From a virus: a DNA stretch of 34,305 nucleotides. How positions within the stretch are numbered: the first letter of the stretch is position 1; each line of letters starts with the position of its first letter. Of this stretch, positions 11,211 to 34,305 are shown one piece after another. The stretch is taken from the IMG/VR virus record IMGVR_UViG_3300047552_000023; one strand, written 5' to 3'. A model generated the notes under the pieces. The model saw nothing but the letters and a program-made list of their open reading frames with translations, did not search any database and had not been told where the DNA came from. A program made the position numbers and the translations under genes.

Positions 11211-12281
11211 ATGTCAAAAGACAAAATCAGCGATTACAGCGCAACAGCAAATTCCAATACGGACATTGCTGGCATTAACATTGACGAAGGATGTGCGCCA
11301 AGTGGCATTAACAACGCCATTCGTACATTGATGAAGCAGTTGAAAGACTGGCAATCAGGCTCGCAAGACGTTTACATCACACCTGCTGGTAGCGTTTCTG
11401 CTCCTGCTGTAACTACTACTGGCGACACTAACACTGGTGTTTATTTCCCTGCTGCTGACAAAGTTGCTATTGCAACTGGTGGAACTCAGGCTGTTATTGT
11501 TGACTCGTCACAGAACGTAGGTATTGGTACGAGTTCTCCCTCGGTTAAATTGCACGTAAAAGGCGGTAACAACAATACTGCATATTTAGATAATGATGGA
11601 AGTCAATATACAACTTCGTTTTTACTAAACAATGGAACAGGTAAAGCGTATTGGTCTTGGGATAACACTAATGCTGCTGTTATTTTGGGTTCTGATACAG
11701 CAAGTTCTTTGTTGACTTTTAAAACGGCTGGCTCAGAACGTATGCGTATCGACTCCAGCGGTAACTTGCTGGTGGGGGCTGCAAGCTCGGCAGGTGCTTA
11801 TAAAGTTCAGATTTACAGCACAAACCTTGCAACGACCACAAACGGTGTTCTTGTAACCAACGGGGCAAACTCAACAGGTGGTTATTTCCATGCGTTTCAA
11901 AACTATGTTGGAACAATCATTGGTTCTATCTCTCAAGCTACTTCAACAACAGTCAACTATGCAACGTCTTCTGACTATCGGCTAAAAGAAAACGTGCAAC
12001 CGATGACAGGTGCGTTGGCTACTGTGTCACAACTCAAACCAGTAAATTACACATGGAAATTGGATGGTTCATCTGGTCAAGGCTTTATTGCTCACGAGTT
12101 GGCAGAGGTGTTTCCAGAGGCGGTTGTTGGCGAAAAAGATGCCGTGGATGAAAAAGGCAACCCAAAATATCAAGGTATTGACACTAGCTTCTTGGTCGCA
12201 ACTCTGACAGCCGCTATTCAGGAGCAACAAGCCATCATCACATCTTTGACAGCCCGTATTGAAGCATTGGAGAACAAATGA
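11211..12281 (+). CDS. Tail fibre with C-terminal peptidase-S74 intramolecular chaperone domain
   Basis: 356 aa with a GGAG RBS. The C-terminus SSDYRLKENVQPM...LKPVNYTWK...GFIAHELAEVFPEAV...YQGIDTSFLVATLTAAIQEQQ matches the self-cleaving S74 chaperone motif (SDxRLK). Confidence 0.8.
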   Translation: MSKDKISDYSATANSNTDIAGINIDEGCAPSGINNAIRTLMKQLKDWQSGSQDVYITPAGSVSAPAVTTTGDTNTGVYFPAADKVAIATGGTQAVIVDSSQNVGIGTSSPSVKLHVKGGNNNTAYLDNDGSQYTTSFLLNNGTGKAYWSWDNTNAAVILGSDTASSLLTFKTAGSERMRIDSSGNLLVGAASSAGAYKVQIYSTNLATTTNGVLVTNGANSTGGYFHAFQNYVGTIIGSISQATSTTVNYATSSDYRLKENVQPMTGALATVSQLKPVNYTWKLDGSSGQGFIAHELAEVFPEAVVGEKDAVDEKGNPKYQGIDTSFLVATLTAAIQEQQAIITSLTARIEALENK

Positions 12282-18192: not shown

Positions 18193-18905
18193 GCTTGTAC
18201 TCCAAAATTAAAAGCAATCAATTGACAAAACAAACGGTATTGCTCTAAATGTTGTTGATTGTTTTTGTGAGTGTTTTCAATTTGTTTTAAAAATTCTGCA
18301 ACTGTTCCTGAGAAACAACCACAAACAACACGGACACCTAATTTGTCGTCAACAAAAGCTGTTGTAAACCGCCCAGATGATTTTGCAGGCCCAATAAGTA
18401 ACCATTCAGTCCTGCCGGAGACCAACGCATCGCCGGAGACCCACGCATCGCCGGAGACCTGCGCATTGCCGTAGACCCGCGCATTGCCGGAGACCAACGC
18501 ATCGCCGGAGACCCACGCATCGCCGGAGACCTGCGCATCGCCGGAGACCTGCGCATTGCCGTAGACCCGCGCATTGCCGGAGACCTGCGCATTGCCGTAG
18601 ACCTGCGCATCGCCGGAGACCTGCGCATCGCCGGAGACCTGCGCATTGCCGTAGACCTGCGCATCGCCGGAGACCTGCGCATCGCCGGAGACCTGCGCAT
18701 TGCCGTAGACCCACGCATCGCCGGAGACCTGCGCATTGCCGTAGACCCACGCATTGCCAATCTGACTTAGATTTTTTTCTGATTCAACATATCCACCCAA
18801 ATCATTAGGAGCAACTAACTCGCCAATTGCAACAATCGCTTTGATTCGGTAAAGTGTTTTACCAAAAAACTGTTTTGTGTCGGTTTTTACAAGTTCGTAT
18901 TTCAT
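18189..18905 (-). CDS. Hexapeptide-repeat (predicted left-handed beta-helix) protein
   Basis: 238 aa from ATG 18905 (MKYELVKTDTKQFFGKTLYRIKA...). It has 19 consecutive G[DN]A[QWRL]V[SY] units, then a C-terminal domain containing VVCGCFSGTVAEFLKQIENTH. The track start at 19007 is upstream read-through in the same frame. Confidence 0.8.
   Translation of the reverse strand: MKYELVKTDTKQFFGKTLYRIKAIVAIGELVAPNDLGGYVESEKNLSQIGNAWVYGNAQVSGDAWVYGNAQVSGDAQVSGDAQVYGNAQVSGDAQVSGDAQVYGNAQVSGNARVYGNAQVSGDAQVSGDAWVSGDALVSGNARVYGNAQVSGDAWVSGDALVSGRTEWLLIGPAKSSGRFTTAFVDDKLGVRVVCGCFSGTVAEFLKQIENTHKNNQQHLEQYRLFCQLIAFNFGVQA
18417..18758 (-). repeat. 19 x 18-bp tandem coding repeat
   Basis: The units are ggagacctgcgcatcgcc and close variants, parsed one by one. 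18597-18650 is duplicated perfectly at 18651-18704 (54 bp = 3 units). All three minus frames are open, which produces two artefactual track ORFs. Confidence 0.95.
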
Positions 18906-19102
18906 TACTTTGCTCCAAAGACAAGCATTGCTGTGATGAAGCCAGCAACAAATGCGTAAAGAATGTTGAGATATTTTTCGTGGTCTGGAGTGTGTGCTTC
19001 CATCCACTCGCCTTGTTGTATGCGCTGAACGTCTTGAACGTTGCTTGGGAACGCTTCTTCAAGAGTGCGTGGAAATGTGCGGGTGGTGTCGTTGACTTTC
19101 AT
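18905..19102 (-). CDS. First leftward early gene: 65-aa tail-anchored membrane protein
   Basis: MKVNDTTRTFPRTLEEAF... with a C-terminal TM YLNILYAFVAGFITAMLVFGA. GGAG lies 5-8 nt upstream of the ATG. A TAATG overlap links it to the next gene. Confidence 0.55.
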   Translation of the reverse strand: MKVNDTTRTFPRTLEEAFPSNVQDVQRIQQGEWMEAHTPDHEKYLNILYAFVAGFITAMLVFGAK

Positions 19103-19237
19103 GGTTGCTCCTAAATTACCGCTTGCGTTGCGCTACGGGATGAATGAAGTATATCTAGTTTTCTAGACATTTTCAAAGAAACTAAAAATATTTTGCAATC
19201 TGTTGCTTTTTTGTCAAAAAATGTAGACAATGCACGA
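19103..19237. promoter_or_regulatory. Divergent early promoter/operator region
   Basis: This is the only place where gene orientation diverges. The palindromic hexamer TTGCAA (19193-19198) can serve as the -35 in both directions. Leftward it has an 18-nt spacer to GAAAAT (19174-19169). Rightward it has an 18-nt spacer to AAAAAT (19217-19222). Confidence 0.45.
19154..19167. promoter_or_regulatory. Perfect palindrome TCTAGTTTTCTAGA (candidate operator)
   Basis: A 14-bp perfect inverted repeat sits just downstream of the putative leftward -10. A related half-site, gTAGACA, recurs at 19223-19229 over the putative rightward start. Confidence 0.35.
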
Positions 19238-19408
19238 ATGGACATCAACAATATTATCAAGAAGGTAGGCTCACAGAGTGAGCTTGCGCGACTTCTAGGT
19301 GTAAAGCGCACGACTGTTTGGCTCTGGAAAAAGACAGGCAAAGTGCCGCAATCACGCATCTGGCAAATTCAACTCAACCACCCTGAACTTTTAAAGGAAA
19401 CGAAATGA
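19238..19408 (+). CDS. Cro/YdaS-like HTH regulator
   Basis: 56 aa from ATG 19238. VGSQSELARLLGVKRTTVWLWKKTGKVPQSRIWQIQ is an HTH followed by the 'vP' motif of Cro/YdaS-like proteins. No SD is visible, so the transcript may be near-leaderless. Confidence 0.65.
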   Translation: MDINNIIKKVGSQSELARLLGVKRTTVWLWKKTGKVPQSRIWQIQLNHPELLKETK

Positions 19409-19557
19409 AAAAAGCAATCGCAATCATCCTGGCAACGCTTGCAATCAGCGCAAACGCTCAGATGTACACAAACACTTACATGATGAACGGCAAGACAGTT
19501 ACTTGCACCACAACTTGCATCGGTAACGGTCAATCTTGCACTACGAGCTGCTTCTAA
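19405..19557 (+). CDS. Secreted Thr/Cys-rich peptide precursor (50 aa, below the track cutoff)
   Basis: Hand translation gives MKKAIAIILATLAISANA|QMYTNTYMMNGKTVTCTTTCIGNGQSCTTSCF. It has an AAAGGAAA RBS, an ATGA overlap with the cro-like stop, a Sec-type signal with an A-N-A site, and a mature 32-mer with C-x3-C-x6-C-x3-C. Confidence 0.55.
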   Translation: MKKAIAIILATLAISANAQMYTNTYMMNGKTVTCTTTCIGNGQSCTTSCF

Positions 19558-19865
19558 TGAATACATTTGCTGAACTTGAAATGGCGGTAATCCGCTGGTC
19601 TGAAGCTCGAAAAATCATCCCAAACAGCACACCAGAAGCGCAACACATCAAACTTGAGGAAGAAGTTGAAGAACTGCGCGAGGCTTTGTTTGACAAAGAC
19701 CATGAAGGCGCTGTTGATGCCATCGGTGATTGCGCTGTCGTGCTTATTAATATTTGCGCTTTGATGGATGTGAACTTCACAGATTGCTTGGCTCATGCCT
19801 ACGACCAAATCAAAGACCGCAAAGGCACAATGAACGCCGCAGGCATCTTTGTGAAGGAATCCTAA
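19557..19865 (+). CDS. MazG-like all-alpha nucleotide pyrophosphohydrolase
   Basis: 102 aa from ATG 19557 (TAATG overlap). KLEEEVEELREAL...AVDAIGDCAVVLINICALMDVNF...AYDQIKDRKGTM matches the phage MazG-like pattern (EExxE...D). Confidence 0.7.
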   Translation: MNTFAELEMAVIRWSEARKIIPNSTPEAQHIKLEEEVEELREALFDKDHEGAVDAIGDCAVVLINICALMDVNFTDCLAHAYDQIKDRKGTMNAAGIFVKES

Positions 19866-20014
19866 TGGGCTGGCTCGTTGGATTAACAGTCATTGCCGCT
19901 TGGCTAACCCATATCTTCACTTGCTTTGCACAAGGCTTTTGGGGCTTCTTGGTGGCTGGCGCTATCTTTTTTCCAATCGGAATCCTTCACGGGTTTTATC
20001 TTTGGTTCAACTGA
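19865..20014 (+). CDS. 49-aa two-TM membrane microprotein
   Basis: MGWLVGLTVIAAWLTHIFTCFAQGFWGFLVAGAIFFPIGILHGFYLWFN, with a TAATG overlap to the upstream gene. Confidence 0.5.
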   Translation: MGWLVGLTVIAAWLTHIFTCFAQGFWGFLVAGAIFFPIGILHGFYLWFN

Positions 20015-33962: not shown

Positions 33963-34305
33963 ATGAGCGAAAACACGACACCGCAAGGTAGTGGGCCGCT
34001 GACGGTGGACACAGCCGCAGCAGCATTTCTAGGCATGATGGATGCAGCAGAGGGAGCTGAAAACAGCCAACCTGAAACTGAGGAAGCCGCCGAGGAATAT
34101 GTTGAGGAATCTGAGTCACAGTTGGTAGATTCTGAAGAAGCTGAAGAACAGCCTACACGAACTTTCCGCATTAAAGCTGCTGGTGAAGATCGTGAAGTAA
34201 CTGAGACTGAGCTTATTGAGGGCTACCAATTAGGCGCGGATTACACCAAGAAAACCCAGAAACTTGCTGAAGAACGCAAAGCGGTGGAAGCCGAACGAGC
34301 GAAAA
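33963..34305 (+). CDS. Scaffolding protein, 5' part (runs off the window; continues at 3-722)
   Basis: ATG 33963 with no stop before the window end. It has an acidic N-terminus (EEAAEEYVEESESQLVDSEEAEE). The last 117 nt duplicate bases 1-117. Confidence 0.65.
   Translation, partial: MSENTTPQGSGPLTVDTAAAAFLGMMDAAEGAENSQPETEEAAEEYVEESESQLVDSEEAEEQPTRTFRIKAAGEDREVTETELIEGYQLGADYTKKTQKLAEERKAVEAERAK
34189..34305. repeat. Terminal direct repeat copy 2 (circular-assembly overlap)
   Basis: Identical to bases 1-117. Confidence 0.9.

Follow-up and report, generated by a model that had tools for sequence, protein, structure and literature searches.

A short phage gene next to a cro-like gene encodes a member of a large, undescribed family of cysteine-paired peptides with predicted export signals

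Sequence comparison identifies positions 19405-19557 of the window (the whole 34,305-nucleotide stretch of DNA analysed here, from the IMG/VR virus record IMGVR_UViG_3300047552_000023) as a protein-coding gene under purifying selection. Its product belongs to a reduced, four-cysteine branch of a six-cysteine family of peptides which, across the protein, viral and cellular sets searched, is large, undescribed and almost purely phage-borne. Early exported accessory proteins are known from phages as a kind; what is new is an undescribed fold family. We are highly confident of the molecular identity of the peptide alone. The full reading, in which the exported peptide is a periplasmic binder that serves exclusion or protection of the envelope, is put forward tentatively, and we give it somewhat less than an even chance. 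The features to which the text refers are the following:

19103-19237, no strand assigned: divergent intergenic region of 135 bp containing promoter-like sites for both operons, the rightward (cro-peptide-mazG) and the leftward (consensus scan)
19238-19408, plus strand: Cro-like HTH gene, its stop overlapping the peptide start (Pfam P22_Cro and YdaS_toxin; PHROG transcription regulators)
19393-19400, plus strand: putative ribosome-binding site AAAGGAAA, AGGA 6 nt 5' of the ATG (read from the sequence)
19405-19557, plus strand: peptide gene, 50 codons plus TAA (ORF list; open in 22 of 22 relatives; purifying selection in this frame only)
19405-19458, plus strand: predicted signal peptide, residues 1-18 (MKK, hydrophobic run, A-N-A; family comparison and AlphaFold helix)
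19459-19554, plus strand: predicted mature 32-residue peptide with three predicted beta-strands (AlphaFold2 and cysteine covariation in the family)
19557-19865, plus strand: MazG-like pyrophosphatase gene, its start overlapping the peptide stop as TAATG (PHROG 1992 and 715, 1.5e-30)

The peptide gene runs from the ATG at 19405 to the TAA stop at 19555-19557. An earlier note on this DNA had proposed a 50-residue frame here with a good ribosome-binding site and an ATGA overlap with the stop of a cro-like gene, and both elements are present: AGGA lies six nucleotides before the ATG, and the ATG shares 19405-19408 with the TGA of an upstream gene, the 56-residue product of which matches Pfam P22_Cro (1.7e-7) and YdaS (3.6e-10). 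In relatives, too, a GGA or GGAG motif stands at this distance from the peptide ATG, even in those with differing upstream coding sequence. The consensus scan found four promoter-like sites in 19103-19237 against 1.6 expected, and no terminator-like site between this divergent region and the peptide gene. At the start of the rightward early operon, which runs on into replication genes, the peptide gene would share a transcript with the Cro-like gene and be translationally coupled to it, and it would follow from this position that the peptide is made early; the “immediate-early” timing assigned to it in the earlier note is likewise a reading of its position. The leftward operon encodes a small membrane protein, a YdcK-like beta-solenoid protein, Erf and an exonuclease.

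Two further small genes flank this region. The first gene of the leftward operon (18905-19102, minus strand) encodes a 65-residue product with a C-terminal hydrophobic segment, which has no family match and has homologues in at least 13 related loci. After mazG, positions 19867-20011 (plus strand) encode a very hydrophobic, two-helix-like protein of 48 residues, which recurs in several related loci; it is conserved in Manatee Spring metagenome phages too (79-85% DNA identity), under the annotation “putative membrane protein”. A terminator-like hairpin (19951-19966) lies inside this gene.

That the frame is a protein-coding gene is shown by its conservation. A word-based protein search returned 11 clusters of relatives (48-58 residues, 61-98% identity), some of which have already been called “hypothetical protein” by the gene callers of other sources. 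A scan of viral contigs found the frame open in 22 of 22 related loci, which answers in the positive the test set beforehand, conservation of the frame in related phages. The four cysteines are invariant across these relatives, and length differs only in the loop that separates the second cysteine from the third, always by in-frame indels. Among close relatives the median pairwise dN/dS is 0.15 (mean dS about 1), and 45 of the 50 third codon positions vary among relatives. Pooled pN/pS is 0.26 in the peptide frame, as opposed to 1.84 and 0.92 in the other sense frames and 1.39 in the in-phase antisense frame, which holds a 65-codon ORF (19369-19566). On the last of these values, the possibility that the peptide frame is a shadow of the antisense ORF was rejected.

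The search of viral DNA and protein sets for the cysteine pattern, which the earlier note had called for, brought to light a large phage-borne family. Profile searching and a DNA-pattern scan recovered 312 unique sequences of 48-56 residues, nearly all of them on phage contigs. A profile of close relatives run against 1.8 billion representatives gave 74 matches, about 70 of which are 48-56-residue peptides with a signal peptide. A profile of 57 sequences run against a set of 5.8 billion gave 234 clusters at 90% identity, all of them unnamed or “hypothetical”, with one labelled “predicted small secreted protein”. A degenerate DNA pattern of the commonest core matched at least 120 viral contigs, with true members throughout the matches listed. 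The same pattern found 13 loci in 596 Gb of cellular genomes. Five of these are true members, on short and possibly phage-derived MAG contigs of Burkholderiales, Alphaproteobacteria and Propionibacteriaceae; the remaining eight were discarded as chance matches in GC-rich actinobacteria. A profile search of 401 Burkholderiales genomes yielded one strong match, in the query's own genome, and a single-protein scan of genome contigs yielded none. The long contigs that carry members are also phages, among them a 65-kb phage with a family-A DNA polymerase and an 85-kb phage with a protein of roughly 2,900 residues. GenBank phage records contain no cultured phage with the peptide, the only hits being partial matches in the Manatee Spring metagenome phages.

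The earlier note knew of no described family with this pattern. This stands insofar as no curated family covers the peptide; it does not stand if taken to mean that the peptide is isolated, given its place within the large six-cysteine phage family. Pfam, PHROG, NCBIfam and PDB gave no family match for the window peptide or for 57 of its relatives. Searching PDB with a sequence profile returned signal-peptide look-alikes only, and the weak matches in the libraries were confined to leaders, those of periplasmic or outer-membrane proteins and the STII leader of PDB constructs. A PHROG match to Cor in one among 57 relatives (E 0.032) is at chance level and was set aside. With the predicted model as query, Foldseek found nothing below E 0.39 in PDB, and its sole match in BFVD is a family member (A0A6J5M8Q5 in UniProt, 47% identical, automatically named “Lipoprotein”). 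Literature searches found no description of such a family, and the words periplasm, disulfide and cysteine are absent from a 2024 review of phage small proteins. Two repetitive proteins of 3,932 and 700 residues were also picked up by the peptide profile, on the strength of many weak repeats (64 and 8 stretches, respectively); this similarity is probably compositional and not a sign of homology.

Comparison across the family points to an N-terminal Sec signal. The leader of the window peptide, which the earlier note took for a Sec signal with an A-x-A site, carries two lysines at its N-terminus (MKK), then an uncharged hydrophobic run of 13 residues and the site, here A-N-A; it is helical in the AlphaFold model. 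Among the 203 unique sequences of the first family set, a site of the A/V-x-A type is present in 201, with Ala at -1 in 196 and A, V, T or S at -3 in 198, and in 189 the cleavage-type site falls exactly one residue before C1. The n-region has a net charge of +1 or more in 192 of the 203, and the median uncharged run is 16 residues. The combination of a charged n-region, an uncharged h-region and small residues at -3 and -1 predicts cleavage by signal peptidase I.

The absence of a lipobox, also remarked on in the earlier note, is borne out: the window peptide has no cysteine near the cleavage site, and its sequence excludes a lipoprotein reading. The idea that the peptides are anchored by a lipidated cysteine derives from the automatic name of A0A6J5M8Q5, the BFVD match, and about 73% of six- and eight-cysteine members pass a permissive test of the last two positions. 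However, the canonical lipobox [LVI][ASTVI][GAS]C occurs in only 16 of 280 six- or eight-cysteine relatives, and among such members 25% have a residue other than G, A or S just before C1 and 74% have Trp or Tyr at -3 from C1. C1, moreover, co-varies with C3 as its disulfide partner. Because lipoboxes are rare and the residues before C1 and at -3 are unfit, the label “Lipoprotein” is unsupported for the family, and we consider lipid anchoring scarcely credible.

The predicted mature peptide has the composition that the earlier note gave for it, with nine Thr, a single charged residue (Lys) and the spacing C-x3-C-x6-C-x3-C in 32 residues. It has no acidic residue, a net charge of +1 and a pI of 7.9, and the mature net charge is 0 or +1 in 192 of 201 relatives. 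With two disulfides, residues 19-50 have a calculated monoisotopic mass of 3485.38 Da, which would fall to 3468.36 Da on cyclisation of the N-terminal Gln. The usual arrangement in the family is of six cysteines, C1 ... C2-x-x-C3-C4 ... C5-x3-C6. The mature parts of the 312 unique sequences contain four (31 sequences), six (251) or eight (28) cysteines, with odd counts in just two, one of which owes its extra cysteine to the signal peptide. C1 and C3 are always jointly present or jointly absent, and the subfamily of the window, with Met20 and Thr37 in their places, has neither. In 28 of 28 eight-cysteine variants, the positions of the extra pair add up to the same number as those of C1 and C3, which places this pair across the same hairpin. 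Even cysteine counts in 310 of the 312, with gain and loss in pairs that are adjacent in the predicted fold, are those of a disulfide-rich mini-protein and support the disulfide-bonded peptide proposed in the earlier note. In the eight-cysteine subfamily (28 loci), the additional pair closes the tip of the first hairpin as C-x4-C around the turn, and the signal peptides start with MKYL, not MKK.

AlphaFold2 predicts a signal helix followed by three strands (residues 19-27, 30-39 and 44-49), and the same three strands are seen in two runs, with mature pLDDT of 74-84 from 20 sequences and 83-90 from 106 sequences. A two-residue turn at 28-29 sets residue 20 opposite residue 37, which is the register demanded by the covariation, and the register of strands 1 and 2 in the model agrees with the positions of C1-C3 and of the extra pair. 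For the cysteines of the window peptide, the C-x3-C spacing and the geometry of the model suggest disulfides C34-C49 and C38-C45 (C2-C6 and C4-C5); geometry is the sole guide to this pairing because these four cysteines never vary. Such a ladder fits the fixed spacing within the C-x3-C motifs of strands 2 and 3 and the loop between them, which varies from 4 to 8 residues in the family. Conserved residues other than cysteine are Thr22, Thr24, Gly29, Lys/Arg30, Thr35, Thr36, Thr47 and a C-terminal aromatic, and the most variable positions (about 3 bits of entropy) flank the first turn, a conserved N-G-K/R. An ice-binding-like array of threonines, considered on account of the TxT patterns, was dropped, as the conserved threonines lie on both faces of the sheet, mixed with other residues, and there is no supporting biology.

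The gene behaves as an optional element of phage early regions. There is one copy of the peptide per locus in 146 loci. An ATGA overlap with the peptide start occurs in 48 of 115 upstream genes on the same strand, and the upstream genes fall into 45 clusters, including Cro-like (25), SSB-like and others. The coupling to a Cro-like gene that the earlier note described is thus true locally and does not extend to the family as a whole, in which the upstream neighbours vary and are always among early genes. The recurrent neighbours in the 146 loci are a DUF1376 replication protein (63), Erf (62), SSB-like (47), MazG (36), exonuclease (32) and Cro-like (24) genes, with no obligatory partner gene among them.

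Among close relatives of the Cro-like gene for which downstream sequence is available, 11 have the peptide gene within 300 nt and ten have it on neither strand within 1.5 kb. In eight of the ten, cro overlaps mazG directly (ATGA or GTGA); with the peptide gene in place, both the cro-peptide and the peptide-mazG junctions are start/stop overlaps. No family member was found anywhere in five relatives of 95-100% estimated completeness, and five complete genomes with the peptide gene, which served as the positive control for this absence search, each gave exactly one copy. The cro-mazG junction looks cleanly exchangeable, and its precision, together with the pattern of presence and absence, makes the peptide gene an optional, precisely bounded cassette. 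One tail-fibre cluster is present in five of six genomes with the peptide and in none of five without it; the structural modules of these genomes differ, and one genome without the peptide has a homologous fibre C-terminus. Comparison of the region around 11211-12281 (plus strand) with ten complete relatives that share the early region shows strong mosaicism between the early and structural halves: the tail and fibre modules are largely different, and only one of the ten has the 673-residue tail protein. An accessory, phage-only distribution of this kind favours a function in conflict, without choosing among the exclusion factor, inhibitor, toxin and signal that had been suggested earlier.

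The window corresponds to positions 239-34543 of a record of 56,925 bases, which holds two tandem, diverged copies of a genome of roughly 34 kb: at about position 34201 of the record the order of genes begins anew, starting from the same N-terminal protein. In the second copy the early-left genes and the lysis cassette are different, and a second peptide gene, with one substitution, lies at record positions 53809-53961. Assembly of two co-occurring strains into one concatemer probably explains the double record. The ORF list of the 34-kb unit shows no gene the size of an integrase or CI gene and several complete relatives have direct terminal repeats, which, with the near-absence of the family from cellular genomes, suggests a lytic or at least non-integrating lifestyle. 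The GC content is 46%. The host is probably a freshwater betaproteobacterium; that it is Gram-negative is suggested by an Rz-like spanin in the sister genome copy and by the MAG matches in Burkholderiales and Alphaproteobacteria.

We propose that the pre-peptide is exported by the Sec system of the host and cut by signal peptidase I after Ala18, and that the 32-residue peptide then folds in the oxidising periplasm into a three-stranded antiparallel beta-sheet. The Dsb system of the host would oxidise it, so that the cross-strand disulfides C34-C49 and C38-C45 staple the sheet, and the standard six-cysteine form would have a third disulfide, C1-C3, between strands 1 and 2. The result would be a rigid, Thr-rich and nearly uncharged mini-sheet that remains periplasmic and acts by binding a protein in that compartment. 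Its purpose may be to shield the infected cell from further phage attack or from envelope damage, possibly through a block on a receptor or on a step of entry, or through inhibition of a tail enzyme as it comes in. As to the target, the occurrence of the family in phages with unrelated virion and replication modules makes a conserved component of the host likelier than the tail of one phage. Exclusion is favoured because conflict genes typically show presence/absence polymorphism and spread horizontally, and because the only well-understood early exported proteins of lytic phages act in this way, namely T4 Spackle (PMC7677548) and T5 Llp (PMC9586334). PHROG, Foldseek against PDB, the PDB profile and the relatives gave no sequence or fold similarity of the peptide to any exclusion protein or inhibitor.

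Several known proteins and peptides resemble the predicted one in part. T4 Spackle (gp61.3) is an early periplasmic superinfection-exclusion protein (PMC7677548), and the likeness extends to a lytic phage, a cleaved signal peptide, small size and an accessory conflict gene, these properties being predicted for the window peptide. Spackle is, however, about three times larger, and has no sequence or profile similarity to the window peptide. Its structure is reportedly helical. T5 Llp and the Cor family are phage lipoproteins that block the FhuA receptor (PMC9586334); they too are small, exported, early or accessory proteins, and they stop further infection at an envelope component. They differ in being lipid-anchored through a lipobox cysteine, a feature which the window peptide lacks and which in canonical form is missing from most of the family. 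The window peptide has no PHROG or Pfam match to T4 Spackle, Imm, Cor or Llp.

Similar scaffolds exist among animal peptides. Tachyplesin, polyphemusin and gomesin are cationic, amphipathic, membrane-active beta-hairpins with two disulfides, and share with the phage peptide a ladder of C-x3-C, short loop and C-x3-C, their four-residue loop lying within the range of 4-8 in the family. The phage peptide, in contrast, is neutral and Thr-rich, and has a predicted third strand, a bacterial Sec leader and, in most of the family, a third disulfide; with a net charge of +1 in the window, it does not show the high positive charge and amphipathicity of a cationic beta-hairpin antimicrobial. Thanatin and similar mimics of beta-strands act by docking to Lpt or Bam proteins of the periplasm. 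Thanatin has no homology to the phage peptide, but is likewise a small disulfide-constrained beta-hairpin in the Gram-negative periplasm, and its edge-strand pairing is a possible mode of action, as a lead only, for a sheet with free edges.

The same scaffold might instead be used for host takeover, with the peptide inhibiting a host periplasmic enzyme (a protease, peptidoglycan hydrolase or nuclease) and not other phages. Small disulfide-rich beta-sheet peptides are classic tight-binding inhibitors, the combination of a conserved scaffold with highly variable residues around the N-G-K/R turn is in keeping with this, and the spread of the family across unrelated phage lineages would suit a conserved host target. 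However, the peptide resembles no inhibitor family, the basic turn residue is not kept in the eight-cysteine variants and the gene is dispensable in complete relatives, and we regard this use as unlikely. Less likely again is a stable peptide that acts outside the cell after lysis, as a signal to other infected cells or a toxin for competitors. A disulfide-stapled peptide would survive release, and the gene adjoins a regulator gene, as do those of arbitrium peptides (AimP, PMC11323111), but there is no receptor-type gene alongside it and the neighbours vary. An arbitrium-type signal was rejected for this reason, the upstream gene encoding a 56-residue Cro-like HTH protein and not an AimR-type receptor. 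In addition, an oxidised peptide of 3.5 kDa exceeds the size that ordinary porins take up, release by phages of plankton would mean strong dilution, and a neutral, non-amphipathic peptide, with the charges given above, is unlike membrane-active peptides.

A part in the timing of lysis, as a periplasmic partner of the holin or spanin system, would have a precedent in T4 RI, which is likewise early, exported, small and periplasmic (PMC6832632). This is made very improbable by the lack of linkage to lysis genes, the recurrent neighbours being genes of replication and recombination, and by the occurrence of the family in phages with different lysis cassettes. The Thr/Cys-rich core might also be taken for that of a modified-peptide precursor of the lanthipeptide, ranthipeptide or thiazole/oxazole type, and the existence of the 65-codon antisense ORF for a sign that there is no gene at all. 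The precursor was rejected on its leader, a Sec signal with a conserved peptidase-I site, and on the lack of a recurrent maturase-sized neighbour in the 146 loci; the even cysteine counts and their register, moreover, fit disulfides. The pN/pS of the antisense frame, given above, speaks against the second of these readings, and we assign both next to no probability. Exclusion or protection of the envelope by a periplasmic binder is the reading that we retain, at the tentative level stated at the outset.

More than 300 distinct sequences, strong purifying selection, movement between lineages and presence or absence among similar genomes make up the signature of a conflict gene, and the paired gains and losses of cysteines provide a disulfide map that can be tested. 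Should a conserved component of the periplasm or outer membrane prove to be the target, the peptide would represent a new mechanism of exclusion or takeover, and also a compact scaffold, accessible to chemical synthesis, with which to probe the Gram-negative envelope. A bolder suggestion, which we offer as speculation and hold to be rather unlikely as it stands, is that these peptides are the first recognised family of disulfide-rich “mini-binders” of phages, beta-sheets of 30 residues with two to four disulfides, exported by many unrelated lytic phages to disable a conserved envelope machine or the entry apparatus of incoming phages. Inhibitors of bacterial processes have a major and unexplored source in the small proteins of phages, of which nearly all described examples act in the cytoplasm; if the “mini-binder” suggestion is true, the family would be a natural peptide scaffold that can evolve and is directed at targets in the Gram-negative periplasm.
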